Virus record (IMG/VR): IMGVR_UViG_3300031949_000032
Coordinates: 1-63,715 of that record
Origin: a virus
Lineage: Duplodnaviria; Caudoviricetes
DNA length: 63,715 nucleotides
Direction: 5' to 3' (one strand)
Shown here: positions 14,441-52,500 of the stretch, piece by piece
Layout: every line of letters starts with the position of its first letter
Position numbering within the stretch: the stretch's first letter is position 1
The notes under the pieces: generated by a model
Database searches by the model: none
Told to the model about the DNA's origin: nothing
What the model saw: only the letters and a program-made list of their open reading frames with translations
Made by a program: the position numbers and the translations under genes

Positions 14441-14457
14441 AATATAATTTATATTTG
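14427..14457 (+). promoter_or_regulatory. Rightward (repressor) promoter
   Basis: TTTG(14427)-N19-TATATTTG(14450). Confidence 0.6.
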
Positions 14458-14484
14458 GTTATGTTTATGTAAAAAACAACAATG

Positions 14485-14515
14485 CAAATATAACTAAATT
14501 TCGACATAATACAAA
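14485..14515 (-). promoter_or_regulatory. Leftward lytic promoter
   Basis: TTTG-N19-TATATTTG; spacer contains TTATGTCGAAAT, identical to 991-1002. Confidence 0.75.
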
Positions 14516-14566
14516 CATTTTGTATTATAAATTACAAATAACTATAACAATTTAATACTGATTATT

Positions 14567-15178
14567 ATGAAAGATAATGAACGAATGAATCTGTTGCTTT
14601 CTGAATTAAATGAAACAGCCAACAGTTTTGCAAAAACAATAGGGTTGCATCCTACCAATATCTACCATGTTCTGAATGGGAGGAATAAAATATCGGATAA
14701 ACTGGCTACACTTATTATAAATAAGTACGACCAAATTAATCCAGATTGGTTGACTCATGGCAAAGGAGAGATATATAACAAAATTACAACTACTATTACA
14801 CATGAGAATAAAACAATTTCGATGGCGCTGGGTGAATATGAATTTGGGGATATCTCAATTGAGCCCAATGGCGAAAAATTCATAATCCCCGGAATGAGTG
14901 AAGGATTTTTAATTAGGGTACGCGATGATTCAATGAGTCCTTTATATAATCCAGGAGATTTAGTAAGTGCCAGATTTGTTGAATTGACATCCCCTATTAT
15001 CTGGGGTAAGAATTACATAGTACTTACAAGTAATATTGGAATCATCCGTAAATTATTACCTGGTAACGAAAATGAGATTAAAATGGTATCAATTAACAGT
15101 AATTACCCTGAATTAGTTATGGACAATAAGATTATTAAGAAGTTGGCAAAAATTAGTGGAGTGGTTCATTTAGAATAG
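14567..15178 (+). CDS. cI: CI-like repressor (XRE HTH + S24 peptidase-like domain)
   Basis: N-terminal HTH with NPDWLTHGKG; VRDDSMSPLYNPGD; divergent from Cro-like gene, next to integrase. Confidence 0.9.
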   Translation: MKDNERMNLLLSELNETANSFAKTIGLHPTNIYHVLNGRNKISDKLATLIINKYDQINPDWLTHGKGEIYNKITTTITHENKTISMALGEYEFGDISIEPNGEKFIIPGMSEGFLIRVRDDSMSPLYNPGDLVSARFVELTSPIIWGKNYIVLTSNIGIIRKLLPGNENEIKMVSINSNYPELVMDNKIIKKLAKISGVVHLE

Positions 15179-16457
15179 TGTTTTGTAATTTGTCTATGAC
15201 TTTTCTATTACATTCATCAATTATTTTTAATCTCTTTTCAATGTATACATGCGTTGTCTGGTTTGATGTCTCATCATGCCCAAGACAAACTGATATTAAA
15301 CTTTCTGGTATTTCACAATCATTCCAAGCTATTGTAGCCCACGAATGACGAAACCAGTAACTAGTAATATCTTTGGCATTTGCAAACTTTAAATCTTTGC
15401 AAATGTCCTTTATATTATCGTTTAAAAACTTCATAAATTCATGGTGATCCTTATATTGATATGGTATTCTAAAGTACTTAGGTCTGTTAACCGTTCGCTC
15501 ATTTAAATTATTATCGGCAAACCGAAGCAAATACTTATCTCCTTTAAACCTATTAATTATCTCCAGTGCTTCAGGTTCTATTTTTATTGAATAAGACCTA
15601 TTATTTTTACTTTTTGTTTTGGCTCGTATATAATCCAATCTTCCATTATTAGGGGTCGTACTCCAAAACAGGTCAATAATATTGATCCCAATCAAATAAA
15701 AAATAAGCATTGCAATATCCCTGGATATAGCCAACCTCTCATTATCAGTTTCATAATTTTTAAAAGCCAGTACCTCTTGTAAGGTAAGGTTTCGCTTCTT
15801 GGTTGGGGAGCTTTTTATTTTGTATAGCTCAAATGGATTTTCAATTAGTTTTATTAGCTTCTGTTTTTTAGCAAGATAAAGTAAGTGCCTAATATTTCTC
15901 ATGTGTATAGATATTGTATTTACTGCTAAAAACTTATCCTTTCCTTTCCTATCCTTTTTTGGGCGTTTTAAAAATTGCTCATACTCAATTAAAAACTGGT
16001 AGTTTATTTGGTTAAAATCCAAAATACGGACTCCTATAAAATCAGATACACTATTAACAGTAAATTCAAACAATTCTGCGGATGATTTTTTACCAGATAA
16101 TTTTAAACTGGATATCTCTCGTTCAGAAAAACAGAAGAAATCTTCCCCGATCTCTGTAATATTTTTTAACACGCGTACCAATTGATTAATATCCATATGT
16201 TTTATCCGGTCTCCAATATTATCTATGGCAATATCTTCATATCCTTCAATAATACCTCTCAATTTTCGGCTTAATACCTTATAATTTGGGTGTTTTGTTT
16301 CAATTGTTCCTGATACGTTATCGAAAAACTTAGGATCAATATCATATTCGGTAGAAATATATCGAGTCGCACCAGCATGGGAAACGCGAATTTTTATATT
16401 ACATTTACCATCATTTTTTACTTCTAATTCCCTGATCTGTGCTTTAAAGCTTGCCAT
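15153..16457 (-). CDS. int: Tyrosine integrase (Bacteroidetes arm-binding + SAM-like type)
   Basis: N-terminal IKIRVSH arm domain; GINIIDL, YWFRHSWAT, LGH, catalytic Tyr in THVYI. Confidence 0.93.
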   Translation of the reverse strand: MASFKAQIRELEVKNDGKCNIKIRVSHAGATRYISTEYDIDPKFFDNVSGTIETKHPNYKVLSRKLRGIIEGYEDIAIDNIGDRIKHMDINQLVRVLKNITEIGEDFFCFSEREISSLKLSGKKSSAELFEFTVNSVSDFIGVRILDFNQINYQFLIEYEQFLKRPKKDRKGKDKFLAVNTISIHMRNIRHLLYLAKKQKLIKLIENPFELYKIKSSPTKKRNLTLQEVLAFKNYETDNERLAISRDIAMLIFYLIGINIIDLFWSTTPNNGRLDYIRAKTKSKNNRSYSIKIEPEALEIINRFKGDKYLLRFADNNLNERTVNRPKYFRIPYQYKDHHEFMKFLNDNIKDICKDLKFANAKDITSYWFRHSWATIAWNDCEIPESLISVCLGHDETSNQTTHVYIEKRLKIIDECNRKVIDKLQNTILNEPLH

Positions 16458-36884: not shown

Positions 36885-37280
36885 TCATTTTTTTTTCTTT
36901 AACGTAAAGCCGGTAATAATAAATGGAATCCAAGTAAATAACACTAATAGAAAAATAGCTATTTTGGTAAATACAGGGGATTCATAACTAATAAATCCAT
37001 ATATGTCAGCTATGCACATTAAACTTGACATTATTCCAAATGTTATTCCTCCATATTTAGGATTTGGACATATTATTAATGTTAAAATTGCAAATAATGA
37101 TGACAAACTTATTGCTAATGCTACAATGCCCAAACCACCTACAAGTAAAAATATAATTAACCATTTAACACCAAAATCAATTGCCTTATTTGAAAGCCAC
37201 CATATACCAGTATCAATTAAATAAAAACATAAAATCAAAATTGGAATGAATAGTATCCATCTTAATATTTTAATAATCAT
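36885..37280 (-). CDS. 4-TM membrane protein (moron)
   Basis: Four hydrophobic segments; opposite strand; very low GC. Confidence 0.75.
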   Translation of the reverse strand: MIIKILRWILFIPILILCFYLIDTGIWWLSNKAIDFGVKWLIIFLLVGGLGIVALAISLSSLFAILTLIICPNPKYGGITFGIMSSLMCIADIYGFISYESPVFTKIAIFLLVLFTWIPFIITGFTLKKKK

Positions 37281-37289
37281 AACATTTTA

Positions 37290-37622
37290 TTAATGGCGTA
37301 TAAATAAATAAATTACAATAGATAAGATATATAAAATCAAAACTAAATATTGTACATAGGTTTTAAAAATGAATGTCAATATAGCACTTAAAAACCAGCC
37401 GATAATTGCGCCTAATAAAACAATGTACCATTTTATAAAAAAGAATGAAGTGATGAAAATTGAAATTGCCGAAAGAAAACCAATTATACTTAAATAACCC
37501 GTTCCGTTGTTTACGAATAGTTTTCCAATTGGCCAACCTTTTTGATTTGCAAAACCTTCATAAGAAAACGATATTACTCCAGAAGTAAACACAATTAAAA
37601 AAACAATACTTAATACTATCAT
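37290..37622 (-). CDS. 4-TM membrane protein (moron)
   Basis: Four hydrophobic segments; GWPIG motif. Confidence 0.75.
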   Translation of the reverse strand: MIVLSIVFLIVFTSGVISFSYEGFANQKGWPIGKLFVNNGTGYLSIIGFLSAISIFITSFFFIKWYIVLLGAIIGWFLSAILTFIFKTYVQYLVLILYILSIVIYLFIRH

Positions 37623-37638
37623 AATGTTATTCTTTTTT

Positions 37639-37671
37639 CAAATATAATTAAATATAAATAACTATTGCAAA
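37639..37671 (-). promoter_or_regulatory. Promoter of the membrane-protein moron
   Basis: TTTG-N21-TATATTTG. Confidence 0.65.
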
Positions 37672-37694
37672 TTAAAAAAATAATTACGAAGTTT

Positions 37695-37872
37695 GTGGTG
37701 CAAGATCAACGGGTATTCACCACATCTAAAAAAGTATTTAGAACACTAAAAATAAAGCTGTGTTCCCGTTTCAGTACCTACCGTGAGGTGGATATTGTTG
37801 GTCTTGCAACCTTTGGGGACACAGCCCCATTTTACAAACTGTGTAATTTTTTACAAACGAATGCAAGACCAA
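37695..37872 (+). ncRNA. C4/CI-like antisense regulatory RNA with flanking targets
   Basis: Stem GCTGTGTTCCC/GGGGACACAGC (37757-37825) contains GTTGGTCTTGCA, complementary to TGCAAGATCAAC (37699) and TGCAAGACCAA (37862, over an ATG). Confidence 0.7.
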
Positions 37873-38073
37873 GTAAAAAATTACTCGAACGATAACCAGG
37901 TTATCAGTTTAAGTACGTCCACCCACGTAACGGGCATTTCAATTCAAACAATTCAAATAATCAAGAACGAGTTATTTAATGCACTTGCCGACCCGGAAGT
38001 TTTACCACTCTATAAGAGAAGAGTGAAATTAGCCATGTGTGAAATATCTTTTTTAAAAGGAGGTATATCATGA
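37861..38073 (+). CDS. Small protein upstream of the antirepressor (icd/kil-like position)
   Basis: ATG at 37861 lies in the antisense target; ATGA coupling to the BRO gene. Confidence 0.6.
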   Translation: MQDQVKNYSNDNQVISLSTSTHVTGISIQTIQIIKNELFNALADPEVLPLYKRRVKLAMCEISFLKGGIS

Positions 38074-39083
38074 ATACACTTGAGATTTTTCAATTCAATA
38101 GTTTGAATGTTCGTGTTTTTGTAAATGAAAACAGTGAGCCTGAGTTCTGCGCCACTGACGTAACTAAGATTTTAGGATACTCAAACGGCCCAGACGCAAT
38201 TAGTAAACATTGTAATTCAAAGGGTATAGCTAAACGCGATACCCTTACTTCTGGCGGCTTACAATCACTAACTTACATTTCAGAAGGTAACCTTTATCGT
38301 TTAATTCTTAAATCCGAGAAACCAGAAGCCGAACCATTTGAAACTTGGGTATGCGACGAAGTAATACCATCAATTCGTAAACATGGAGCTTATATGACTT
38401 CTAACGCATCTATTACACCCATGTCTACCTCAGAAATGCTTCTTAAGCAAGCTCAAATAAATGTAGAAATTGAGAAGAAGCAAAAAGAGTATGGTCTTAG
38501 AATTTCTCAAATAGAAGATGAAATTACCAGCATTAAATTACAGAATAATACCAGTTCGTTTATTCACAATATTGGTACCAATGACAATGAGAAACTTTAT
38601 TTACTACTTAGTTCTTTAAACGAAAATGCAAATAGCTTATCTCGTAAACTAGGAATTCATCCTACTAATTTATATCATATAATAAGTGGAAGAAATAAAC
38701 TTTCTGACAAAATGATCGAACGTATATCTTCAAGATTTAACGTAAGTCCTAATTGGTTAAAATTTGGAGTTGGTGATATGTTTATTGACAATATCCCTCA
38801 AGAAATTTATTTGCCGGTACCAGAAGAAAAGGTTCCGGAAATTACCCTTAGAGATAAAATAAGGTTATTGGTAAATAAGTATTCAAATGCAACTGGAACA
38901 TTTCAAAAAACTATTTGGGATAATGTTTATCAGACCTTGTATTATAACTATCACATATCTATTAAGAGTTACGTTAAAATAAGGAAAGATGAAACTTATT
39001 TGGAAGTAGCAGAGCGCAAAGAGCATCTTGATAAAATATATACAATTATTTCGAATATGGTAAGCCGTAAAATGACAGTATAA
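38070..39083 (+). CDS. BRO-N antirepressor with internal CI-like HTH
   Basis: BRO-N (FCATDVTKILGY...ISEGNLYRLILKS...WVCDEVIPSIRKHGAY); internal HTH similar to CI; C-terminal helical domain. Confidence 0.9.
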   Translation: MNTLEIFQFNSLNVRVFVNENSEPEFCATDVTKILGYSNGPDAISKHCNSKGIAKRDTLTSGGLQSLTYISEGNLYRLILKSEKPEAEPFETWVCDEVIPSIRKHGAYMTSNASITPMSTSEMLLKQAQINVEIEKKQKEYGLRISQIEDEITSIKLQNNTSSFIHNIGTNDNEKLYLLLSSLNENANSLSRKLGIHPTNLYHIISGRNKLSDKMIERISSRFNVSPNWLKFGVGDMFIDNIPQEIYLPVPEEKVPEITLRDKIRLLVNKYSNATGTFQKTIWDNVYQTLYYNYHISIKSYVKIRKDETYLEVAERKEHLDKIYTIISNMVSRKMTV

Positions 39084-39217: not shown

Positions 39218-41194
39218 CTAAGCTGCCTGTCTTCCCATAGCCTGTTCCAACATTGCCATTGCTTTTGGGTCACCTTGCTGTGCTGCCTGTGATACTTCGG
39301 GTGGTATTCCAGATTGAGCCTGTTGTTTGGCGGCTTCTTCTTCCTGCCTTTTTAGCGATTCAAGCATAGTGTCTGCAAATGGAACATTCGAATTTTCAAG
39401 GTACATCTTAAGATTGATCCTTTCTGTATTCAAAAGGTTTGTTAATGTTTCTTCCATTGCCATCCTATAAATAGGAGTATCATTACCTGAAGATACTACA
39501 TTATCAAATGCCATATTTTTTACAGCTTCCGGGTCATAAAGTTTAGCTTCTTCTTTAAATGCCCTACCAGATATAGCCAAGTATCTTGGTTCATTGTAGA
39601 ACTGTTTAATAAGCTGAATCATTTTATAATCCCTATCCTTAATGAAGGATGCGAATGATTTCATATACCCTACATTGTTTGTAGATGCATTCTGAGCCTC
39701 CATTGCGTATCTGGATGCCGGTGTTCCGCTTCCGGCAGATTGTCCTTGTATTGCTCCCTGTACACCCGAAATATCGGTAAGGAGTTTAGAATACAATTGA
39801 ATCATTTCTTGCGCTCCAATATTTGTAGAGTTAACCGAAATTTGTTTTGGTAACTGGCCGTGAGCTTTTGGAGTATAAAAAATTACGCCATTAATTTCAG
39901 TCCATGATGCCGCGAATTCATCTGGAGACATTCCCTCCGGAACAATATCCTTTGGCACCATAAGTGTACCCTTGGCCGAAGAATTGATAATCATATCCAT
40001 AAGTATGATATATCTATTCAACTGTCTTTGAATATCAATAATATCGCTAACAAATCCCCAATTTTCACCGTCAATTAATGGGTATAAAAGAAATACATAA
40101 GGATGTTCCTGGTGTTCGTATGGAGTTTCACCTTCTTGTAAAACATATCCATTCGGAGTAAGGAATTTATAATACCAGAATTGTTCGTATACATCCTTTA
40201 ATTCAAGGAGCAATAAATCTTCTTCAGCAACTCCCTGGGATAAACCTTGGGATATTCTGTTTGCATTTATTTTATTTAATTCTGAACGTGAACGATTTGT
40301 TACAGTAATACTACCATCTGCATAATCGATAACTTCAATTCTCCATTCTCCTTTTAATTCCCACGCCTCAATAACCCGGCATTTAGTAAAATCATTAGGT
40401 ATAAGGAAATCTAAGTTATCAACTGATTCTGGTCTAAAACCGTACACTCTTGACAAATAATCAATATCCCTTACATTACCGTACCATTGGCGAATCTTTT
40501 CTTCATCTGCTTTATTTCTGGCAAAGTTTGAAATCAAATCTTTAATTGGCAGGTCGTGTATTTCTCCTATTAATCTTAAATCCCTATGCTGAATATCTGT
40601 AATATCAGAATTCATAAACATGCGCGAGATTGTTTTATTTTCAACAATTAGGTCATAACAATCACGTGTTCTATGGGGCCCAAACATAACCTTTTGAATA
40701 GGCATACCGGAAAGTAAAAATTCTACAAACGATGAAGCATCCCTTTCTTCTGTTTTATTTATTTGCTGGCCATACTGAAGAGCGTTTGTCATCATTTCGG
40801 TTGCCTTTTGCTTATCCCGGTCTCTGGACAATACAATTGTACTTGTTGGATTACCTCTATATTGCCCTTCCAGGTTCTTGACTAATTGGCGTACCTGATT
40901 TTGAACGAAAGGTATTTTACCTTGCTCTCTAATCAAATCTTCTTCTTTAATCATTTTACCCGTTTTTGGGTGCCGGATATACTCATCCCATTGACGGCCT
41001 CTATGGTAATTTCTTGCCCGTTTTCGTTCCTTCCTACTTTCTGCAAGGCTATCATAATATGAACGGCATTTCCATACCAATTCTGTATTCTCCCTGCTGA
41101 AATCTTCATGCAATCTTTTTTCTGGTACCGGTTTACTTTTAATACCCAGAGTTTGCTTATTGATCTTTTTGAAATTAATAGTTCCTTCTATCAT
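39218..41194 (-). CDS. Portal protein (P22-like)
   Basis: YHRGRQW, IPFVQNQVR, IIDIQRQLNR, DISGV...QG. Confidence 0.85.
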   Translation of the reverse strand: MIEGTINFKKINKQTLGIKSKPVPEKRLHEDFSRENTELVWKCRSYYDSLAESRKERKRARNYHRGRQWDEYIRHPKTGKMIKEEDLIREQGKIPFVQNQVRQLVKNLEGQYRGNPTSTIVLSRDRDKQKATEMMTNALQYGQQINKTEERDASSFVEFLLSGMPIQKVMFGPHRTRDCYDLIVENKTISRMFMNSDITDIQHRDLRLIGEIHDLPIKDLISNFARNKADEEKIRQWYGNVRDIDYLSRVYGFRPESVDNLDFLIPNDFTKCRVIEAWELKGEWRIEVIDYADGSITVTNRSRSELNKINANRISQGLSQGVAEEDLLLLELKDVYEQFWYYKFLTPNGYVLQEGETPYEHQEHPYVFLLYPLIDGENWGFVSDIIDIQRQLNRYIILMDMIINSSAKGTLMVPKDIVPEGMSPDEFAASWTEINGVIFYTPKAHGQLPKQISVNSTNIGAQEMIQLYSKLLTDISGVQGAIQGQSAGSGTPASRYAMEAQNASTNNVGYMKSFASFIKDRDYKMIQLIKQFYNEPRYLAISGRAFKEEAKLYDPEAVKNMAFDNVVSSGNDTPIYRMAMEETLTNLLNTERINLKMYLENSNVPFADTMLESLKRQEEEAAKQQAQSGIPPEVSQAAQQGDPKAMAMLEQAMGRQAA

Positions 41195-44100
41195 GGTTTG
41201 CTGTATTTGCTTACAATGTTTCTTTTAGTATTATTGATTATGTGTTCAATATTATCCTTTGCTAATTGTTTCTTTTTTCTTTCTTCGTAAGGCATACTTT
41301 CATCAATTATGATTGTATTTTTAATTTTATAGAGTTTGGATAATATTGATTCGGCAACTTTAACTTTATTGAACTTTGTTAAATCATTTTTTAACATCGC
41401 ATCAAGTACTTCATGGTAATTACCGGCATCCTTCTGGGCTTTATAACTATTATTATGATCTTTATACCAATTTGACAATTTACGGTATTCATCATCAACT
41501 CTACCTTTGTACTTATTTCTGTAAAATGAATTTATTATAGGAACGGTGGTAAAATCAAATCCTTCTGTAATGTCATCTATTTCTGCTTCCTTTTTAGCTT
41601 TTTCTGCTTTTGTTTCTATCATTTTACTCATAGTTGTAATAGCATCCAACACAAACGATGCAGGACCGGCTCCTAAATCTTTAGTTATATATTCTAAATC
41701 GGAAGGGTTAATATCCATAATATCCCACACTTTTTTTCCATCTTTTAAATCCATAATAGAACGTACTTTTGGATCACCACCACCCAATATAAATAAATTA
41801 TCGGTCAACGCTTTATACAATGGATTTACATTTCGTTTATGTAATTGAGAGTCCGGTATGTATTCTTTATCTTCAAATTTAGATGGCTCTCTATGTATAA
41901 GATCATTTTTATAATCTTTATTATCTACCCATACACTTATAATTGGTTCAAGTAATGTTGGAATTTTTGCTATAGAGGCAAGGTTAAAACCCTTATCATC
42001 TTTATTCCAAAAACTTGTAACATCAATAGGACTCATTGCATTCTGAAATTGGTCGATAAGATCGTATGTTGCCGTAGCCGCATCCGTTTTTTCATGCTGC
42101 AGGTCATAAACAATATTCCCAACTGCATAAAAAAACCTATGGCCTTGTGCAAGTGGTATCATTGTAAATTTATTACCAGGTGCAATAATTATATTATTAT
42201 ACCTATTATGCTTATTATGTTCTTTATAGTCCTTTTCTTTATCATCATCATCCCAAAGTAATCCATTTATCATAGACATTACATACCCTAAAGTTGCCAG
42301 ACTTAATTCAGCTATCCCAAATCTTAAAGTATGATGTTTAAACGAATGTCCATATCTCGCTCCACCCTGTACCGCTGCGTTAAAAAAACCTATTAATGAG
42401 CCAATAGCAGATGAAGCATTTCCTTTTCTATCAAAGTTTACTGATATTTCTTTTGCAATATTTATAGCTTGTACAACTGTTTTACCTTGTTCCCTTGCGG
42501 TTACATATGCCGCGAACCTGGTTAAATTTTCTGTGTATTGAGCCAAGGTATCTATATGTTCAAGTATTTTCATTGCTCCCTTATCGGCTCTGATTATTAA
42601 TTTACCAACTGCTAAGTATGGATGGGCTTTTGCATACACCTCTTGGTTTATTTTTTTAATATCTTTATCAAGGTTTCCTTTTATAGTATCAATATCTTCT
42701 AAATTTGTTGTTCCTGTGCGGCCTCCACCTGCAATAAATTCTTCTTGATATTTAAATAAATCAGACTTCGCTTTACCTTTTTTACCTTTAACCATAAAAG
42801 CCATTATATCTGCAACATTTTTAACATATAAAACGGTTGTTTTGGTATCGTTTTCAATCCACGTATTCATTATGGCCCCCTGTAAGTCTCGCGTTAAATT
42901 CTTTATTATCCAAGCAGGGTTTTTTGCTGTACGTAATGCGGATATACCTCTTGTAATCTTACTAACATTAAACCATTTCCATGACATCCATTTTGGAATA
43001 TCTATAAGTTCAGCCTTTTTTATTTCATTGGCCAATTTAGGGTCGCGGGTAACAACAATAAATTTCTCACCGTTCATCATTACCTCTAATTCATGTTGAT
43101 CGGCATTTTGTTTCGGGTTTCTTATCTCATGGTCGATACGAATTTTAGACTTTATTTCACGACCTTCACCGGTCAATTCAAGTGCAGAACCCAATAGTTT
43201 TAAATCCATGTTACCATCTTCGGTATATCCTTTAATTTCATAGATATTATCACCTTCTTTAATTACTTCAGTCCATGTGCCATCATCATTGCTAATGTAT
43301 AATGTTTTTTTCTGGTAGAATAAATCAGTACGATCAGGATTATCCCTTGTTAATCTTAAAGCGTGTTGTTTAACTCTATTTTTTTCACCCCATTTAATAA
43401 CAGACTGAGCCATCTGGTAAAGATTAGAGATTGGATCATCGGCAATAGACCTACGGCCTTTCATTTGCACCGTACCATTAAAGCTACCTTTGCCAGATTC
43501 TTTGTTATAATCCCATTCAATGTCTTCAGAGGTTGGCTCCCATCCGCGCAATGGAACATAATATTTCCATCCGCGATCCTTATTTGTATTATAGGTTTCT
43601 TGGTCAAACTTCCCATAAGTAACCCACATTTTTTGAATGTCATCGGCAGCTTTGCCCCATTTATTCCAAAATGAATCAATAACAGATTCCGGTATATCGC
43701 TTTCAAAATTCATAATGATAGTTTCGGCCTGAATATCCGTCATACCCGCGAACACTTTATCAGCTACTTCCTCTGTCTTTTTTTCTACAAGAAGTTTTAT
43801 TTCGTCCAGTTTTTCCTGAAAACCTTCTGGATCATTTACCTGTTCATCCGGGTTTAGCTTTGACATTAACCCTTGCTTATAAGCTTCAACTTCCTCAGCC
43901 CTTTTAGTTGCATTACGTTCGGGTGCATGTTTGGCTATCATGTAACGGGGAATACTATTCCTATCGAGTTTACTTACTTCATTGTTGTAAGTATCCTCAT
44001 CAATTTCACCTTTCTTGAATTTGGCTTCAAGCTCTACGTAAGCTTTCACATCTCTACTCTTACCTAACCTTACAAATTGTGCAATATGTTCTAGCGCTGG

Positions 44101-47100
44101 CCTAAATGAATCCTTTACATATTTTTCCCATCTGGCTTGTCCTTTACTGTTTTTTTGGTTATCTGCAAGGTACACATCGGATGAGTCTTTAATTTTCAAA
44201 CCAAATAAACTTTGTAGTTTTTTCCATGCAAACATATTATCCTGTCCAATTTCACGCTTAATGTCGCCTATTCCATCAAGCATTTTAGGCGGTTTACGAT
44301 CCAATAATTCAGGGATTAGTTCTCCTAATCTATCAAATGGGTCTGTTGGGTCAACTGGTGGTTCAGGAGGTGTATTTTTAAATAGGATGTTAGGGTTATT
44401 AATATCAAATGTTCCAATATTTCCGGTAGCAGATTTTAACTGTGTAGGGTCAAATACTGCAATATTGGTCATTCCTTGTTCGGTTACATAGAAAGAATCG
44501 TAACCAAGTTCTTTAATCTTGTCAATAACTGGTTGTTTCTCTATACCCCAAGGATCACCGTTACTAATACGTTCCTTAATTTTGTCTCGAACTCCAAGGG
44601 TATTTAGTAAGTCATTAAGTTGGGTTTTATTTCTATAATCGAAAGGGTTTTCTGCTTTTACAAAAACAGGCATTAAAGAACCTGAAGTTCCTTTTTCTGC
44701 ATCTGTTTTCATAAATCCACCTTGTACCCATTTTGGATCGGGGCCGGCAAATATTAATCCTTTACTGTTTGGCTTAAACGTGTCGAAATCATCATTAGTA
44801 GCATGGTACATACGAATAGGTTGACCATTATCATCAACGGCCTTACTTTCACCAAACCACTGCTTAAACTCAGGTGTTAATCCTCTTCCTGTGTCTGAAC
44901 CGGATATGTTTCCCGCATCTTTCTGAGAGCTTCCATCATGTTCATCCCTTCCAGACAATAGTCGTCCATCAGGTCTATTTCCTTTTTGGTAAGATGGAAA
45001 GTGAAATGTATCCCCGTTTTCTCGTCCACTATTCCCACTATTTGTTTCCGATCTTGATTCATTGTTAAATGTTTTATATGCAAATGTATTAATAATTTTA
45101 TCTATTTCTTCCGAAGAGAAAACTTCTTTATCCAAAATAGTAGATAGTTCGGATTCAGAATATATGTCATTTACATTTATTCTGCCGTCTTTAAGGTTTT
45201 TCTCAGCTTTATATGCCATGTATTCATTAGCCTGTAATAAATCACTCCGTGTATCATAAAATGACGGTATAACGCTGAATATTTCACCTTTTACATTATT
45301 GTAAATGTTTGATAAGAATTTAATTTTAATATTTGTAGGTAATTTAGCTACAATAGCATGTACATTTTCGTGTAATAAAATTTGGTCGGCAATTTCTTTA
45401 GAATGGGCATTTACAGAAAGTATATATATTTGTCCTACATCAGGTAAATAACAACCAGAAAAATCCTTATTTTCTTTAAGTGAATCAATATAATCTTGGC
45501 TTGTACCACCCAATGACTTATAATGGTCAATTACTTCATTTATTCCTTTACATACCTTAACGGGTGTGTCTCCTTTATTGATCGAATCTACATAGTCCTG
45601 TACTTCTTTTACACTATTTAGCCATTGTGTAGTATTGGGGTTTATGCCAGATTTAAACATAGGTTGTCCTTCAATTACACTGTCCTTCATAGATGGTGTA
45701 ATTTCAATAGTATGAACTGGGGTATTGTTTGATAATTCAACATCAGACACTTTGCCACCCCATTTTTTAGTATATTTATTTACCCAAGCTGGAAGTATTT
45801 GGTCATAGAAACCTTTCATACCTTCGCCACCAACTTTAAGTCCATCTCCTGTTATGTTTTTGTAGCCTGTTTTTTGCGCATCACCTTCGTTATTAAGTAT
45901 TTTATTAGCAATATCCTTTCCTACTGTATTCTCAATTTCTGACAGTGAAGCACTATCGTTTTCCCATAAAGTATCAGTATTTTCTTTATTATAAACTCCT
46001 ATGTCATAGGTATTATTATCGTTTTGCTTATAAGATATTCTTCCTACATGCTTACTCAAATTATACCTTTCAGCCTGAGTTTCACCGGTAGTCCAAGTAA
46101 CAACATCGAACCCGTTTTCGGCAGCATAACGTAAAGCCCATTTCATTCCAAGTCCTGCCCATTGGTCAGTTTTTTTGAAGGGCATGTCGGGAACACCATT
46201 AACTCCTTTTATAAGCAATTGTTCTTTATTATTTTCTTCTTCATTCATATCGTAACTCCATGAATGCCCATACTTTTCTTTCATCTCTTCACGAAAAGAC
46301 ACTAAAGCTTTACCGTCATTAGTTTTAAAACCTTCCTTTTTACCCTTCTGCGCCCAATCGCTCTGAACTTCTTCTAAATTCAGCGCACGTTTACCGTCCT
46401 TGGTAGTAAATTCATTTATGCGGATATGAACAGCAATGTTTAGTTCATCGAAGTGGGAGGAATTAAATTGTCCTTGAATCGAAAGTTCTGTTGTTGGGTT
46501 AATTGTACTTTTTGCACTTTCAATATCAGATTCACTTGGGAATGCACCGGATAATTGTTTATCATTAATAAAAAATGCCCATAGTCCTTTATTATTCTGC
46601 TTCCAAATTGGCTTTTTAGTTTCTTTTGCAGGTAATGTCAACAATACCTCTTTATAATTTTCTCCTCCGGGTATGGTGTATTGGGAATATTTAGTATTTC
46701 CTTCTTCTTTTTTGCCAACTTGGTAATTATCTGAGTCCGTTTCCATGTTTTGCTTAGCTTCGTATACATCATCGATAGCGTCAAAACCAGATTCTTCTTT
46801 TAAATCTTTCTCCTTTTCTTCTATACTTTCTCTTATAGAATTTTCCTTTTCATAAGGATATTCATTCATAGAAAGTTCGTTCCATAAAAATTCAATCTTA
46901 TTAAATCTTCTTTCGTATTCTTTTAATTGATCATATTTTTGTTGAGCTTCGTCCGTAAATTCGTTTAGTACATAATTTTCATTAACTATACTTTCTTTCA
47001 CGATCTCCTTAACTTCCACCTTATTCTCATCAATCCAATTCTGAATTTCTTCCTTGGTCAATGATTTTTTACCATTGGCGAATGAATCCCAATCCATCCA

Positions 47101-50100
47101 GTCAAGTTCATCTTGTTTTGCTCCGTTTTTAAGAAGCATAGCTTTGAATTGTTCAGGAGTTCCTTTTTCTTGTTGTATTGAGTTTAAAGCACGTTCTGAG
47201 TTGGAATAGTAGGTGTCTGATTTGCGGAAACGAATATCTTCATCTGGCTTACTAAAGTATTTATCACCTATCCTTTTTGCTTCCCTTACTGCATTTTCAG
47301 TATTTTGTCTCTGCCAAGCTTTATTAAAAGGTGACCACTTCCATCCACTATGTTTTAATTCATATATAATTTCAGGTGTTGGTTTTTCATCGAAAAATAA
47401 ACGTAACCGTTCGTCATCTGTGTTGTTTTCTATTTTTAACCCATTATACTCTGGAATATTAAACTGCTTTTCAAGTTCTACTTTTTTATCAAAAGTTGTT
47501 TCAGGAAGTTTCCATATAGAGTTATTGTCGGCAAAAATTGGCTTATCTAAATTAGACTGGACTTCTCTTATGTAATCAAGTGATTTTTGAACATCTTCTT
47601 TTTGTCCGTTTCTAGCCATAGTGTTAATAAATCTTGATAATCCAGACACAAATAATCTTCTATCGTAACCTTTTTCAGTCCCATTATCTATACCTATAAT
47701 TGTTCTTAAATCATTATCAATATTCTTTTTAATACTATTCCATTTTTCTGCATCTTTTTGCTCTTGCGGAGCAGCATTTTTAATAGCTTTAATAGCTATA
47801 CTTTCAGCTTTACCAATCCAGTCAGTAAATTCGACACTTCTTTTGTGTTCTGTATTGTTTGCTTTTTCATTTCTAGCAGTAGGAAAATTAGATGGGCCGG
47901 TTATCATTGGGGATAAAACACGAGACTTTGCACTCAGTAAAGCATTATAATGTTTAATATAACCTTCTTTATACCGTTGAACCTGTTCTGATAGAATCTT
48001 TTTTTGCTCATCGGAAGTTGCTAATTTAGTAAGTGTTTCTATTAATGAATTTACATCCTCAACATAACCTTCTTGTGCTTGCTTAGCCCTTTTCTCAGGA
48101 CTAAAACTTGTACCACGATGGGCATCGTAAGCTAAATTATAACTTATGTCTTCAAGTTTAGGGGTAATATCATCTTTAACAGGATTAAGTATGTCGTTTA
48201 ATTTTTCAATATAGCTATCAGGATTAATGTTTAACCCGGAAATATTATCAATTCCAATTTCTTTTGAATCAGTATTTTCTTTTAATGATGGCGGGATTAA
48301 TCCAGAAATTACATCATCATTAGTTAATGTAGTCTTTGAATAATAATCCTGCATGTATTTAATTTCACGATACCTTTCACCAACATCAGGATCATTCATA
48401 TCACTTTCCTGAAAACTAAATATATCCCAATATTTTTTGGGATTATTTTTTAAATCTTCAATATCTATTTTCCAGTATTCTTTTTGGTCTAAAGGTTCAT
48501 TTGGATCATTTATTTTGTCCTGTATAAACTGTATTTCGTCTAAATTTATTTGTTCTATCGTTTTCCTATCTTCGGGAATACGATCAGAAACCATATTACC
48601 GGTATCGGGAATATGGTCAATAGGTTTAGTGGTAATTAACTCATTTAGCTTTATGGTATCATCAATAGGCTTTTTAGTTTCCGATTTACTGGATAACCAT
48701 TTTTTGAAATTATCGATTGACATTTCGGTAATTGACCCCATTCCATTCCAAGCAGGTTTATAGTTTAATTGGTAAGCTATCTTAGCTTCTTTTGCATTGA
48801 TAAACCCTAACATTACCTTATGTTCGTCAAATTCACCAGTTTTTGGGTTCATTTGGTCAATAATGAATACCTTTTTAGACGAAGGATTATCTCCTATAAA
48901 TGTATCAACCTGGTCTCCATCTTTACCCTCAGTCCTTTTAAAGTATCCGTATGTGTTATTTAAAACAGATTCCCATGCTTTACCATCCTGGTCCACTCCT
49001 TTTCGGGTTGATCCTTTTGGATTTTCAATAGTAATGCCTAAACCTTGTATGGTCACATGTCCCATTTTATAATTACCCGCATCCTTCTGGGCTTCGGTTG
49101 GGTCTGTGTTTACTTTAGCTTCTTCTTCCTGAATCTTGGCCTGTATTTCTTCTGGTTTTTCTTCAGTCTTATTTAGTTCGCTTATTTCGAAGTCCTCAAC
49201 AAACGAAGCCTTGTCCATTCCCTCAATATTTATACCTGGAAAGTTTTTAGCTCCTAAATAAAAAGATTTAAGGTATGGGATAATGGCTTCTCCAAATTCT
49301 GAAATCATACCCTTGGCAAAATCAACAAACTTTCTTGCACCTGACTCGATATGAAAAGCGGCCATTTCTGTACCAATGGCGAATAATTCAGGATCAAAAC
49401 CGGAATTAAGGTTTGTTAATTTTCCCTTTAACCTGGCTTTAAGTTCCTCGTAACGTTCCTTGGATACAAGTTTATTCTCTTGACCAGATTCCTTTTTAGC
49501 TTTCTGTTTACTCTTTTCAACTTCTGCTGCCTGTTTATCGGAAAGTTTTTTTAACGTATCATTGTATTCAGATAACACATTTTCAGGTACTGGCTTTCCT
49601 TCGTCAAGTGCTTTAGCTACTGCCTGTGTATGTAATGACAAGTAAGGTTCTTTATTACCTTCAAGCTGTCCATATATCCTTTGCGCTTCTGGTTGGTTCC
49701 AGAATTCATCTCTTGTCATTTGCCAAGGTTCCTTTTGTGATTTATTAACCTTTGGTTTTTCTTCAGGTACAACTTCTTTTTCCTCGGTAAAAGAACTATT
49801 ATTAATAATTGATTCAGGTTTAACCATGTATGTAAGACCATCATCTCCCTTAATCTTAACTTTACCCCTTTCTTCTCCGATTATGGTACCTTGGTTAATA
49901 GAACCGTCAAGGAATTTAAAAGTAACTTTAGCAGGTGCAGTAGAGTCGCTTAACCCTACATTAATATCTTCTACTGCCTCCTGCGTATTTTGTGGAGCTC
50001 CAACCTTCGGGTATGCTATAATACCATGCAGAGGTTGATCTTCGTTCTCTGAGTTTGGTAGTTCTACTACTTTAACATCGAAGTTTTTAGCATTCTTCTG

Positions 50101-52500
50101 AAGTTTTTCGGCTGTTTTAGTTGCATCCTCTACATTAGGAGAAATGAAATTAAAGGTATGGGAACCGTCCTCATTTTTAACAGAGTTGAAAGTCTCACCT
50201 TTACTTGTAGTCCATTTCCGGGTATTGGTCGGGGCTTGTACTTTTTCTTCCGGTGCAGTTAAATCTTCGGGTGTAGCCTGTTGTTCGCTTGCTACTTGAT
50301 TTGTTGGTAACTGAATACCGGCATATTTATCTGGAGTTATTTCAACACTTCCGTTATTATTATCGGCATATATGGTACCATCGGGCTGTAAGTCTGAAAT
50401 TACATAATCCTCAGATTGCCCGGTTAAAGGATCGTTATATGTTATAGATTGTCCTGGGGTATATTGTGGCGCATTTTCTTGTTCCTGTTCTAAAAGTTCG
50501 TTTTGTGCCTGTTGGGTATTGTGAATATCATCAACAAATATTTCAGCCTCTACCGGATTAGTCCTATCCAATTGCAATGCCGATATAGGTATAACCTTTT
50601 CCAATGAAGGTACATAAACATACGATAGTTTTTCGTCCACATCCTTGGTTACAAATGCTTCAGTAGGGTTACCTTCTTCGTCCTCCATATTTCTAATGGT
50701 AACCGGGTGTATTGCGCCTGTTTCAGCATTAATCATCGGGGCTACATCCGAACGTACTTTAGATTTAAGCGATTCATTGAGTATATCGTACTGAGTTTTC
50801 CTATTGAAATAGTCAAGCATTGCCATTTTCTTCTCAGGAGTATCTGCCAGTAATGTAAGGTCACTATTAGCCTTCATCCTTTCTTCTAAATCATCCGAGG
50901 TATTGGCATCTATGATTATTTGGGCATCTTCTCCAAAAACAGAAAGGTTGTTTACTGCGGCCTTGTATGGTTTGGTTATGTTTGCATAGTTTACAACGTG
51001 TCCGGGAGTTTCGGCAAGTTTGAATAAACCGCCAAATACCATTGTATTTACAAATATCTGCCCTTGTGTATTCCAGTTAAATATATCTGAAAACTTTTGT
51101 TCGTCATCTACAACGGCATTCCATATACCTGAGAATGTTTCCCCGGCCTGTTCTCCGGCAATACCCTGAATACCTAAGTTTTTCCTAGTTGTATTTAATG
51201 CTGTAATAAAACCACCTTTTTTACTTGTATCAAATAGCAATCCCAATCCAACTTTAGAACCAATACTTTTTAAAGATGGTGAAAGTAGATCATCAACTAC
51301 ACCGCCTCCAAATTCGGAATACCGTTCCATAAATGTTGTGAGGTATGGAACAACTAATGAATTTACAGCATTATGTTCTGTCCCTTGTATAAATTCTCCT
51401 TTGCTATTTTCGTTAAGTGCAACGTCTGGGGTAAGTTTATCTGTAACTCCTTGGTAATACGAAGTCATTCCAAAAACCCTTGGAGCTTGATAAGCTGCAT
51501 TTTTAATTAAGTTTTTTGGTAATGATTTTAGATAGGCTTTCATGCCTTGTTTTGCCAATTCAACAGTTCCTTCTTTAGTAGCGGCTCCGACACCTCCTGT
51601 AGCCCATAAATTTATCATAAAAGGAATTGCATTGGCTAACATTTCGCCAGCTCCATAACCAAATCCGCTTGGATTTTCAGATTTAAACTGTTGTTCAAGT
51701 GATGCTGCGGTCAAAGCTATTTGCTCATCTTCATTTAGAGGAAGTCCATTTTTTGCCTTGTAAGATATTTCCAATACGTCCATAGAGTTTGAAAGTCCTT
51801 TAAATCCTATGGTCATAATATCATTCCAGTCTGACTGCTTAACACCTTCCCAGAAGTTTTTAGGGTTAGACTGATAATCTTTAAGGCTATTTATAATGCG
51901 CTTAGCTTCTTCAAGTCTCTTTATTTTACCAGATTTATCGTAATCCTGTAAATTTTCATCAATTTGACCGAACAATCCAGGGAGTAATCCTCCTTCTGTT
52001 TTATCTGGTTGCTGAGTTTGTATACTTTTTATTTGTCGATCAATCTCAGGTATTAAAGAATTTTGAAGTGTTTCAAATTGTTCTTTTCGCCTGTATTCAT
52101 CACCGGCTTCTTGAAATGACTGTTCAATTGGTTTTTCTTTAACTGAAGTATCAACTTTAGGTAAAGCAGTATTGAAAGCGGATGCCCGTTGCTGCATGTT
52201 TTCGGCAGACTGTACAAACTTATTCGATTCTTCCGGAGTAGGTTTTTGGTCAAGATATTCTTGTCTTAATGGGGGTAATTGTTTTTCATTCTCCCAGGTA
52301 GAAGGTTCAATCTTTTTATCAAATGGAGTATTTACCTTTTTACTATTACTTCTTTGTCTTCCAAATAAATCCAAATACTCATTATCATCTTCGGGTAACT
52401 TACCAAACGCATCAATATATTCCTTTTCATCATCCATTAAAGGCTCTGAAACTTGAACATCTTCAGTTATTCCAAATAGCTTTTTTATATCTTCAGGCAT
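41191..52500 (-). CDS. Giant polyvalent virion/ejection protein (3769 aa)
   Basis: Inorganic-pyrophosphatase-like domain (AGNYKMGH...YGY...GKDGDQVD...FDEHK), DUF3560-like segment, EEVQSDW domain, HExxH zincin (LHENVH), ART-like domain (FKQWFG...MYHAT...AVFDPTQLKS), LPD38-like C-terminus. Confidence 0.85.
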   Translation of the reverse strand: MPEDIKKLFGITEDVQVSEPLMDDEKEYIDAFGKLPEDDNEYLDLFGRQRSNSKKVNTPFDKKIEPSTWENEKQLPPLRQEYLDQKPTPEESNKFVQSAENMQQRASAFNTALPKVDTSVKEKPIEQSFQEAGDEYRRKEQFETLQNSLIPEIDRQIKSIQTQQPDKTEGGLLPGLFGQIDENLQDYDKSGKIKRLEEAKRIINSLKDYQSNPKNFWEGVKQSDWNDIMTIGFKGLSNSMDVLEISYKAKNGLPLNEDEQIALTAASLEQQFKSENPSGFGYGAGEMLANAIPFMINLWATGGVGAATKEGTVELAKQGMKAYLKSLPKNLIKNAAYQAPRVFGMTSYYQGVTDKLTPDVALNENSKGEFIQGTEHNAVNSLVVPYLTTFMERYSEFGGGVVDDLLSPSLKSIGSKVGLGLLFDTSKKGGFITALNTTRKNLGIQGIAGEQAGETFSGIWNAVVDDEQKFSDIFNWNTQGQIFVNTMVFGGLFKLAETPGHVVNYANITKPYKAAVNNLSVFGEDAQIIIDANTSDDLEERMKANSDLTLLADTPEKKMAMLDYFNRKTQYDILNESLKSKVRSDVAPMINAETGAIHPVTIRNMEDEEGNPTEAFVTKDVDEKLSYVYVPSLEKVIPISALQLDRTNPVEAEIFVDDIHNTQQAQNELLEQEQENAPQYTPGQSITYNDPLTGQSEDYVISDLQPDGTIYADNNNGSVEITPDKYAGIQLPTNQVASEQQATPEDLTAPEEKVQAPTNTRKWTTSKGETFNSVKNEDGSHTFNFISPNVEDATKTAEKLQKNAKNFDVKVVELPNSENEDQPLHGIIAYPKVGAPQNTQEAVEDINVGLSDSTAPAKVTFKFLDGSINQGTIIGEERGKVKIKGDDGLTYMVKPESIINNSSFTEEKEVVPEEKPKVNKSQKEPWQMTRDEFWNQPEAQRIYGQLEGNKEPYLSLHTQAVAKALDEGKPVPENVLSEYNDTLKKLSDKQAAEVEKSKQKAKKESGQENKLVSKERYEELKARLKGKLTNLNSGFDPELFAIGTEMAAFHIESGARKFVDFAKGMISEFGEAIIPYLKSFYLGAKNFPGINIEGMDKASFVEDFEISELNKTEEKPEEIQAKIQEEEAKVNTDPTEAQKDAGNYKMGHVTIQGLGITIENPKGSTRKGVDQDGKAWESVLNNTYGYFKRTEGKDGDQVDTFIGDNPSSKKVFIIDQMNPKTGEFDEHKVMLGFINAKEAKIAYQLNYKPAWNGMGSITEMSIDNFKKWLSSKSETKKPIDDTIKLNELITTKPIDHIPDTGNMVSDRIPEDRKTIEQINLDEIQFIQDKINDPNEPLDQKEYWKIDIEDLKNNPKKYWDIFSFQESDMNDPDVGERYREIKYMQDYYSKTTLTNDDVISGLIPPSLKENTDSKEIGIDNISGLNINPDSYIEKLNDILNPVKDDITPKLEDISYNLAYDAHRGTSFSPEKRAKQAQEGYVEDVNSLIETLTKLATSDEQKKILSEQVQRYKEGYIKHYNALLSAKSRVLSPMITGPSNFPTARNEKANNTEHKRSVEFTDWIGKAESIAIKAIKNAAPQEQKDAEKWNSIKKNIDNDLRTIIGIDNGTEKGYDRRLFVSGLSRFINTMARNGQKEDVQKSLDYIREVQSNLDKPIFADNNSIWKLPETTFDKKVELEKQFNIPEYNGLKIENNTDDERLRLFFDEKPTPEIIYELKHSGWKWSPFNKAWQRQNTENAVREAKRIGDKYFSKPDEDIRFRKSDTYYSNSERALNSIQQEKGTPEQFKAMLLKNGAKQDELDWMDWDSFANGKKSLTKEEIQNWIDENKVEVKEIVKESIVNENYVLNEFTDEAQQKYDQLKEYERRFNKIEFLWNELSMNEYPYEKENSIRESIEEKEKDLKEESGFDAIDDVYEAKQNMETDSDNYQVGKKEEGNTKYSQYTIPGGENYKEVLLTLPAKETKKPIWKQNNKGLWAFFINDKQLSGAFPSESDIESAKSTINPTTELSIQGQFNSSHFDELNIAVHIRINEFTTKDGKRALNLEEVQSDWAQKGKKEGFKTNDGKALVSFREEMKEKYGHSWSYDMNEEENNKEQLLIKGVNGVPDMPFKKTDQWAGLGMKWALRYAAENGFDVVTWTTGETQAERYNLSKHVGRISYKQNDNNTYDIGVYNKENTDTLWENDSASLSEIENTVGKDIANKILNNEGDAQKTGYKNITGDGLKVGGEGMKGFYDQILPAWVNKYTKKWGGKVSDVELSNNTPVHTIEITPSMKDSVIEGQPMFKSGINPNTTQWLNSVKEVQDYVDSINKGDTPVKVCKGINEVIDHYKSLGGTSQDYIDSLKENKDFSGCYLPDVGQIYILSVNAHSKEIADQILLHENVHAIVAKLPTNIKIKFLSNIYNNVKGEIFSVIPSFYDTRSDLLQANEYMAYKAEKNLKDGRINVNDIYSESELSTILDKEVFSSEEIDKIINTFAYKTFNNESRSETNSGNSGRENGDTFHFPSYQKGNRPDGRLLSGRDEHDGSSQKDAGNISGSDTGRGLTPEFKQWFGESKAVDDNGQPIRMYHATNDDFDTFKPNSKGLIFAGPDPKWVQGGFMKTDAEKGTSGSLMPVFVKAENPFDYRNKTQLNDLLNTLGVRDKIKERISNGDPWGIEKQPVIDKIKELGYDSFYVTEQGMTNIAVFDPTQLKSATGNIGTFDINNPNILFKNTPPEPPVDPTDPFDRLGELIPELLDRKPPKMLDGIGDIKREIGQDNMFAWKKLQSLFGLKIKDSSDVYLADNQKNSKGQARWEKYVKDSFRPALEHIAQFVRLGKSRDVKAYVELEAKFKKGEIDEDTYNNEVSKLDRNSIPRYMIAKHAPERNATKRAEEVEAYKQGLMSKLNPDEQVNDPEGFQEKLDEIKLLVEKKTEEVADKVFAGMTDIQAETIIMNFESDIPESVIDSFWNKWGKAADDIQKMWVTYGKFDQETYNTNKDRGWKYYVPLRGWEPTSEDIEWDYNKESGKGSFNGTVQMKGRRSIADDPISNLYQMAQSVIKWGEKNRVKQHALRLTRDNPDRTDLFYQKKTLYISNDDGTWTEVIKEGDNIYEIKGYTEDGNMDLKLLGSALELTGEGREIKSKIRIDHEIRNPKQNADQHELEVMMNGEKFIVVTRDPKLANEIKKAELIDIPKWMSWKWFNVSKITRGISALRTAKNPAWIIKNLTRDLQGAIMNTWIENDTKTTVLYVKNVADIMAFMVKGKKGKAKSDLFKYQEEFIAGGGRTGTTNLEDIDTIKGNLDKDIKKINQEVYAKAHPYLAVGKLIIRADKGAMKILEHIDTLAQYTENLTRFAAYVTAREQGKTVVQAINIAKEISVNFDRKGNASSAIGSLIGFFNAAVQGGARYGHSFKHHTLRFGIAELSLATLGYVMSMINGLLWDDDDKEKDYKEHNKHNRYNNIIIAPGNKFTMIPLAQGHRFFYAVGNIVYDLQHEKTDAATATYDLIDQFQNAMSPIDVTSFWNKDDKGFNLASIAKIPTLLEPIISVWVDNKDYKNDLIHREPSKFEDKEYIPDSQLHKRNVNPLYKALTDNLFILGGGDPKVRSIMDLKDGKKVWDIMDINPSDLEYITKDLGAGPASFVLDAITTMSKMIETKAEKAKKEAEIDDITEGFDFTTVPIINSFYRNKYKGRVDDEYRKLSNWYKDHNNSYKAQKDAGNYHEVLDAMLKNDLTKFNKVKVAESILSKLYKIKNTIIIDESMPYEERKKKQLAKDNIEHIINNTKRNIVSKYSKP
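44877..45062 (-). CDS. Overprinted 61-aa ORF nested out of frame in the giant gene
   Basis: A-rich TAAAACATTTAACA-ATG initiation region; globular-looking sequence while the main frame is a disordered linker. Confidence 0.5.
   Translation of the reverse strand: MNQDRKQIVGIVDEKTGIHFTFHLTKKEIDLMDDYCLEGMNMMEALRKMRETYPVQTQEED

Follow-up and report, generated by a model that had tools for sequence, protein, structure and literature searches.

Antirepressors are usually viewed as proteins that bind the repressor, and Cro proteins as small competitors for its operators. A known precedent for a second regulator related to the repressor is Cro of phage 434, which is derived from part of cI and is roughly 48% identical to the corresponding 434 repressor domain. 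Regulators of the BRO-N, KilA-N and Rha types are well known to shuffle their domains. Mor is an HTH protein that contacts the N-terminal domain of CI. In two reports, Mor (MOR) of lactococcal phage TP901-1 and staphylococcal phage phi13 is presented as acting with CI in the switch between lysis and lysogeny and is named an antirepressor (PMC11149083; PMC7250872).

The locus described here can be compared with each of these systems. Like phage 434, this phage encodes a second protein, here called Ant, with an HTH homologous to the DNA-binding domain of its repressor; 434 Cro acts at the operators of the repressor and drives the lytic choice, and for Ant the sharing of operators is predicted. 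Unlike 434 Cro, which is small, stand-alone and encoded beside cI, the Ant HTH lies within a BRO-N protein encoded 24 kb away, and a separate cro-like gene is already present opposite cI. Ant, a multidomain protein of 337 aa, does not have the layout of a small HTH-only protein encoded divergently from cI that characterizes the Cro type. With the BRO-N/KilAC antirepressors (PF02498 plus PF03374; PHROG 130) it shares its N-terminal 140–155 residues, at up to 85% identity, but it has a long helix, an HTH and an unnamed four-helix module in place of KilAC. Mor differs from Ant in being small, encoded divergently from cI and free of a BRO-N fusion, and a contact between Ant and CI would be hypothetical. 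In the titles and abstract openings of the papers listed by literature searches, no antirepressor-family protein with a repressor-lineage HTH is described.

The phage and the modular organization of Ant

The DNA analyzed here (the window, 63,715 bases) is an uncultivated, complete-looking IMG/VR virus entry with direct terminal repeats, a [G + C] content of 33% and a CheckV completeness of 77. Both ends of the record (14–417 and 63222–63685) carry a common repeat with a 60-nt period, and positions 74–303 are 98% identical to 63456–63685. The end repeat sits within a minus-strand ORF that runs off both record ends, so that the terminal repeat is part of a repeat-containing gene and the record is probably circularly permuted. 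An Rfam scan of the window gave nothing at gathering scores.

The phage is temperate, and its integrase gene adjoins the gene for a CI-type repressor. Its portal protein is 35–38% identical to the portals of three Bacteroides temperate phages in GenBank (BF1-TP2, BS-TP4, and BKO1-TP3), and weak relatives of CI are found in Flavobacterium and Porphyromonas phages, which points to a member of the Bacteroidota as the probable host. Portal relatives were not found in IMG/VR.

The ant gene is present in a single copy in the record, in an accessory region where it adjoins the portal gene. Its product (P0001) is built of modules and, by its predicted domains, belongs to the antirepressor/regulator type of phage proteins (Table 1). 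Residues 1–144 match PHROG 130, "anti-repressor Ant" (4e-44), and the Bro-N profile scored 78.1 bits on the protein, and 80.1 bits in a six-frame search, against a gathering cut-off of 25.6. Membership of the XRE/Cro-CI group is indicated by HTH_3 (PF01381) at residues 190–230, with 28.3 bits against a cut-off of 23; HTH_19, at 29.5 bits, stayed slightly below its cut-off of 30.2. KilAC had no Pfam match in Ant at E ≤ 0.1, and neither did Pfam give a match to an S24 peptidase domain, so that Ant is not a CI/LexA-type repressor consisting of an HTH and S24.

In the AF2 model of full-length Ant (mean pLDDT 72), the BRO-N part (residues 1–111, pLDDT 76–89) is followed by one long helix (120–167), the HTH helices (172–236), a disordered stretch and a confidently modeled four-helix bundle (260–333). 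The HTH part of this model has a low pLDDT (42–62), since homologues of that part were missing from the alignment. The C-terminal module, modeled as a 95-aa piece, reached a pLDDT of 84, with helices at 18–33, 37–52, 68–74, and 78–93 of that piece.

Table 1. Coordinates of the ant gene, its domains and the immunity region in the window.
Feature	Position	Strand	Evidence or description
Divergent cro/cII-like gene, 171 aa	13925..14440	-	Pfam HTH_3 4e-5; N-terminal HTH distant from the Ant and CI HTHs
Immunity intergenic region	14441..14566	.	Between the cro-like gene and cI
TATATTTG boxes, divergent	14450-14457; 14485-14492	+; -	Motif scan, TAnnTTTG type
Perfect 10-3-10 palindrome ATAATACAAA/TTTGTATTAT	14506-14528		Candidate operator; inverted-repeat search
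CI-type repressor gene, 203 aa (P0002)	14567..15178	+	HTH residues 3-70 (nt 14573-14776) and S24 111-192
Integrase	15153..16457	-	PHROG 1 integrase, 1.4e-11; adjoins CI
ant-like gene, 337 aa (P0001)	38070..39083	+	BRO-N, long helix, inserted XRE HTH, C-terminal four-helix module
BRO-N domain, residues 13-100	38106..38369	+	Pfam PF02498, E 8.3e-22
Long helix/linker, residues ~120-167	38427..38570	+	Alignment A1; BLASTP to the L009 protein; single helix in model
Lineage-specific insert, residues 156-247	38535..38810	+	Replaces ~13 residues of relatives
HTH core of insert, residues 172-238	38583-38783	+	BLASTP alignment with CI
C-terminal module, residues 248-337	38811..39080	+	Unnamed four-helix domain; 21 homologues at 51-69% identity

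A homology search with the whole protein listed 119 others, which have the BRO-N part alone in common with Ant. KilAC is annotated on most of them, the rest having Bro-N alone, PF08346 or no family, and none of the 119 carries an HTH Pfam domain. A search with residues 165–337 found 21 other proteins, among whose N-termini AntA, Rha and KilA-N are represented and others are unassigned. They are alike over the last ~90 residues and the preceding helix, with E-values for the module of 1e-20 to 4e-30 in 20 cases and 1.4e-14 in the remaining one. The linker-helix motif PLSxxExL...EKRLSxVExKV is kept in other proteins with the C-terminal module, and the module motif RDKIRxLVN...WxxxYxxLYYxY...AER is found in Ant; in an alignment of the query piece with 25 others (A5, 26 sequences) 11 columns of the module are invariant. 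Judged from these domain combinations, the scaffold represents a family of regulators that shuffle their parts. The locus also defines a widespread, unnamed four-helix C-terminal module of Bacteroidota-phage regulators.

Ant differs from these relatives in its HTH. None of the 21 other module proteins covers the insert, and the HTH region of Ant is a clean gap in all nine module proteins that were aligned. Scans with the module alignment gave 27 loci, 26 of them from IMG/VR and the remaining one from GTDB species genomes, and none of the 10 distinct proteins that they encode has an HTH match. The layout without insert is illustrated by a BRO-N protein of 253 aa (locus L009), which consists of BRO-N, helix and module: Ant residues 1–155 align to its residues 4–148, and 248–334 to 162–248 (55% identity over the latter 87 aa), so that residues 156–247 of Ant take the place of 13 residues. 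On these alignments, the HTH is a lineage-specific insertion of ~80 aa, a complete XRE domain between helix and module.

A second protein with the insert was not found by word-index searches with the whole of Ant or with residues 165–337, nor at the IMG/VR and GTDB loci mentioned above, nor in JGI metagenome contigs, where one weak locus was detected. Among the best 150 of 836 HTH relatives (see below), neither BRO-N nor the C-terminal module occurs, and in five IMG/VR records that encode module proteins without the insert no CI-like HTH scored more than 18.2 bits. A fold search with the model of the module gave no matches at E ≤ 0.001 in PDB and BFVD. Its structural neighbors in the Atlas, which we regard as leads only, are clusters headed by Rha, AntA, BRO-N, and ORF6N, together with small stand-alone proteins. 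The Atlas also lists, likewise as leads, clusters that combine Bro-N with HTH_26 (97% of 70 members), Rha with HTH_3 (97% of 68) and ORF6N with HTH_3 (31% of 54 members).

In Bacteroides phage BF1-TP2 (L004, positions 3001–4098), a 105-aa BRO-N-only gene lies beside a Rha-headed gene that carries the C-terminal module (Rha-like gp64), and the pair lies next to the portal gene, as ant does. BRO-N and module are thus on two adjacent genes in BF1-TP2 and on a single gene here, and in its predicted domain order the ant gene of the window looks like a fusion of parts such as these.

Relationship between the inserted HTH and the CI repressor

The CI protein matches PHROG 4, "transcriptional repressor" (1.2e-17), and Pfam assigns it Peptidase_S24 at residues 111–192 (E 4.8e-9) and, weakly, HTH_3. 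A collection of 5.8 billion proteins contains three orthologues at 52–56% identity, all on contigs of at most 9.3 kb; in IMG/VR no relatives were found with either a single-protein or an alignment query. Within the S24 domain (CI residues 119–125, alignment A2), CI and three orthologues read RDDSMSP and P0289 reads RDNAMSP. The Ser of the DSM motif is presumably the catalytic Ser, and P0289, with Ala at the aligned position, may be a non-cleaving repressor.

The original prediction had placed a domain resembling the DNA-binding domain of CI inside the BRO-N protein, at positions 38580–38785. These coordinates are correct, both peptide strings quoted for the two proteins are present, and BLASTP aligned the HTH core of Ant with residues 3–70 of CI at 80.1 bits (E 2e-22), with 33 of 68 positions identical (49%), 55 positives and one gap, a match well beyond what chance would give. 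By hand, 27 of the first 43 aligned residues are identical, so that the earlier counts of about 27 of 44 and 33 of 69 are borne out. In a comparison within the genome the Ant HTH scored 75.5 bits against CI and 13.8 bits (28% identity, E 0.006) against the product of the divergent cro-like gene, its only other HTH match there; because this third HTH of the genome scores so much lower, the likeness of Ant and CI is not a generic HTH resemblance. Among sampled Bacteroidota genomes, 1 of 401 had a match at E ≤ 1e-6 (best 32.9 bits, 37% identity). The three Bacteroides phages with a related portal have no comparable HTH, their sole match at E ≤ 1 being one of 14.7 bits and 26% identity in one phage.

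To place the domain among its relatives, the 75-aa Ant HTH was searched against 1.84 billion representative proteins, which gave 836 matches at E ≤ 1e-3, and per-domain phmmer scores were compared among the best 150 of these. The phage's own CI scored highest (72.3 bits), followed by a CI orthologue of 207 aa (P0152, 62.1 bits) and a 139-aa HTH protein without S24 (P0159, 58.0 bits), with all others at 56.4 bits or less. When the CI HTH served as query, P0152 scored 80.3 bits, Ant 70.8 and the next best 61.2. The kinship of the Ant HTH with the CI lineage is, by these scores, specific, the own CI being the top-scoring single domain among the best 150 of 836. Whether the domain is equally similar to unrelated XRE domains, a possibility that the original prediction had raised against itself, receives a divided answer: by score it is not, given the distance between own CI and P0159, but by plain identity P0159 is its nearest relative (53%). 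The highest total scores belonged to database proteins of 272–1148 aa that carry this kind of HTH in 3–7 tandem copies (P0138–P0146 and P0157).

The claim that Ant carries a close copy of the phage's own CI domain did not hold. Ant is 49% identical to its own CI, and the CI orthologues from other contigs are as similar (P0287, 50%; P0152, 49%; P0288, 49%; P0289, 46%); the own CI is itself 50–58% identical to its orthologues. Among 53 HTHs of the subfamily (1378 pairs) the median identity is 34%, which places the Ant–CI pair at about the 94th–95th percentile. At the DNA level the two HTH segments are identical at 116 of 201 positions (58%), and 12 of the 33 identical residues agree in their codon, where saturated synonymous sites would be expected, with the codon usage of the genome, to give 15.2. 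In a maximum-likelihood tree from a 71-column alignment, the five CIs (P0002, P0152, and P0287–P0289) are united with support values of 92/85, and the Ant HTH stands outside them, in a polytomy beside the CI clade. AU tests on the same alignment did not reject a sister relationship of Ant to the own CI (delta lnL 6.17, p 0.36) or a tree with Ant forced into the CI clade (delta lnL 1.23, p-AU 0.47). From these comparisons we group the Ant HTH with its own CI and the CI orthologues, in one narrow branch of an HTH subfamily of Bacteroidota phages. The amino acid identity of 49%, the saturated synonymous sites and the placement on the tree mark the insert as an old domain that has diverged from the HTH of the CI family, or from a very close neighbor of that HTH, rather than as a recent copy.

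The resemblance extends to the predicted recognition helix. Here the motif HPTNxYH, which had been proposed as common to the two proteins, was recovered in both: the helix-3 stretch reads HPTNLYH in Ant and HPTNIYH in the own CI. Among 154 proteins, which comprise Ant, CI, another 149 of the HTH relatives listed and three additional CI orthologues, it occurs in one more, the orthologue P0288 (HPTNIYH); P0152 has HSTMLYH, P0289 NTTNIYH, and P0287 NAANLYH. An alignment to the 434 repressor, although weak (E 0.95), puts the residues shared by Ant and CI on helix 3. At every position aligned with the presumed base-contacting residues of the 434 repressor Ant has the residue of its own CI, and the CI orthologues vary there. 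Such identity fits either an ancestral state that both have kept or selection toward a target that they share. Across the five CIs and Ant 13 columns of the HTH are invariant, which is consistent with a functional fold.

Candidate operators and possible functions of the Ant HTH

Between the cro-like gene and cI lie two divergent TATATTTG boxes that agree with TAnnTTTG, which we take to be the Bacteroidota -7 promoter consensus. The perfect palindrome listed in Table 1 overlies the upstream part of the predicted leftward promoter; it occurs once in the window, and no other palindrome turned up in the immunity region. The half-site shows no enrichment (29 matches, 26 expected) and was not found upstream of ant. 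The sequence TTACAAAC has two copies upstream of ant and is not enriched either (8 against 4.9 expected).

Our preferred, though tentative, reading, which we consider a serious possibility but somewhat short of probable, is that the Ant HTH acts in the manner of Cro, as a domain that directs to operators the antirepressor-family scaffold onto which it was grafted. The domain would bind the same operators as CI in 14441–14566, or overlapping ones, and act as a Cro domain, as in phage 434. Ant could then compete with CI at these sites, or recruit its antirepressor scaffold to CI that sits on the operators, and the net outcome would favor lytic development or anti-immunity. We assume that the dimerization needed for a palindromic site would be supplied by the long helix, the C-terminal module, or both. 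The sharing of operators is suggested, indirectly, and chiefly by the identity of the recognition-helix residues in Ant and its own CI. Several observations argue against the Cro-like reading, namely the position of the Ant HTH outside the CI clade together with the higher identity of P0159, which is not a CI; the lone palindrome, with a half-site that is neither enriched nor repeated upstream of ant; the low confidence of the HTH in the whole-protein model; the lack of a plus-strand TAnnTTTG box within 450 nt upstream of ant; and the further BRO-N plus HTH clusters of the Atlas. Since such clusters exist, an HTH on this scaffold need not be related to CI, and the tree and the identity to P0159 leave room for an origin among small HTH regulators at large, with another DNA target.

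A stronger form of the Cro-like reading is an operator-addressed antirepressor, in which one protein would combine Cro-like competition for sites with Ant-like action on the repressor; this we consider unlikely. A BRO-N protein with a repressor-lineage HTH and the predicted recognition residues of the resident CI would unite the two principles of antirepressor and Cro, and would show immunity specificity grafted onto a shuffling scaffold. If this is true, Ant-family proteins with an XRE insert would be immunity-specific switch proteins, with an HTH that tracks the CI of their own phage. Ant with its insert and the L009 protein without it, on the same scaffold, offer a natural contrast.

The readings that compete with a Cro-like domain differ in what they make of the same similarities. 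Ant may be an independent regulator that drew its HTH from the pool of small XRE regulators shared by Bacteroidota phages and whose sites, for example at its own gene or at accessory genes, are unrelated to the CI operators, so that its likeness to CI would reflect shared subfamily ancestry alone. The nearest relative by identity, the tree and the saturated synonymous sites all agree with this, as do the location of ant in an accessory region beside the portal gene, far from the immunity region, and the Bro-N + HTH_26, Rha + HTH_3 and ORF6N + HTH_3 clusters (again as a lead). Yet the top score of the own CI among the best 150 of 836 matches from the 1.84e9-protein library, and the occurrence of HPTNxYH in no more than three of 154 proteins (Ant, the own CI and a single CI orthologue), are not what a common pool would lead one to expect, and we consider an independent regulator doubtful, if far from negligible. 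Should the HTH bind unrelated sites, Ant would be another instance of the shuffling of domains already known from phage regulators.

The HTH might also act on the repressor protein itself, as a mimic that docks on CI and blocks its DNA binding or oligomerization without binding DNA, in the manner of Mor or of a poison subunit. In LexA-like repressors oligomerization resides in the C-terminal S24 domain, and since Ant lacks this domain its HTH alone would be ill suited as a poison subunit; that the DNA-contact positions are conserved also favors DNA binding over protein mimicry. We hold such a mimic to be improbable, although the PHROG names generally annotate proteins of the BRO-N/Ant family as repressor binders, and a report on TP901-1 and phi13 names Mor an antirepressor of CI (PMC11149083). 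Far less credible is a recent intragenomic duplication, in which the insert would be a fresh copy of the 5' end of the phage's own cI. Although the own CI gives the highest bit score and the AU test does not reject it as the sister of Ant, amino acid identity of 49%, nucleotide identity of 58% and codon agreement below the expectation at saturation are hard to reconcile with a fresh copy, and so are the equal similarity of foreign orthologues and the well-supported CI clade that leaves Ant out. We regard it as least probable of all, and scarcely worth considering, that the arrangement is an artefact, either an assembly chimera or a decaying gene without function. Ant is a singleton cluster known from a single contig, in an uncultivated record whose completeness is given above, but its 337-aa ORF is uninterrupted, the insert lies cleanly and in frame between two conserved blocks, all 13 family-invariant HTH columns are kept, and the flanking domains are modeled with confidence.

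Sequences on either side of ant

A gap of 447 nt precedes ant, and within 450 nt upstream of the gene no plus-strand TAnnTTTG box was found. Part of the gap (37690–37900, plus strand) is richer in [G + C], contains several long-range inverted repeats and folds to -60.1 kcal/mol (z -3.85), with none of 200 shuffles folding as well. Rfam gave nothing at E ≤ 1 in 37600–38100, and blastn of the ant upstream region against GenBank phages gave no match. Its predicted folding would suit a small RNA, or a 5' leader with structure. Farther upstream, between the early plus-strand genes and ant, two small ORFs of 131 and 110 aa (36885–37622, minus strand) had no PHROG match; the 110-aa product is strongly hydrophobic and resembles a membrane protein.

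On the other side, directly downstream of the portal gene and overlapping it, lies an ORF of 3769 aa (41191–52500, minus strand). It has a counterpart in a syntenic giant gene of Bacteroides phage BKO1-TP3, which is annotated as "DarB-like antirestriction."
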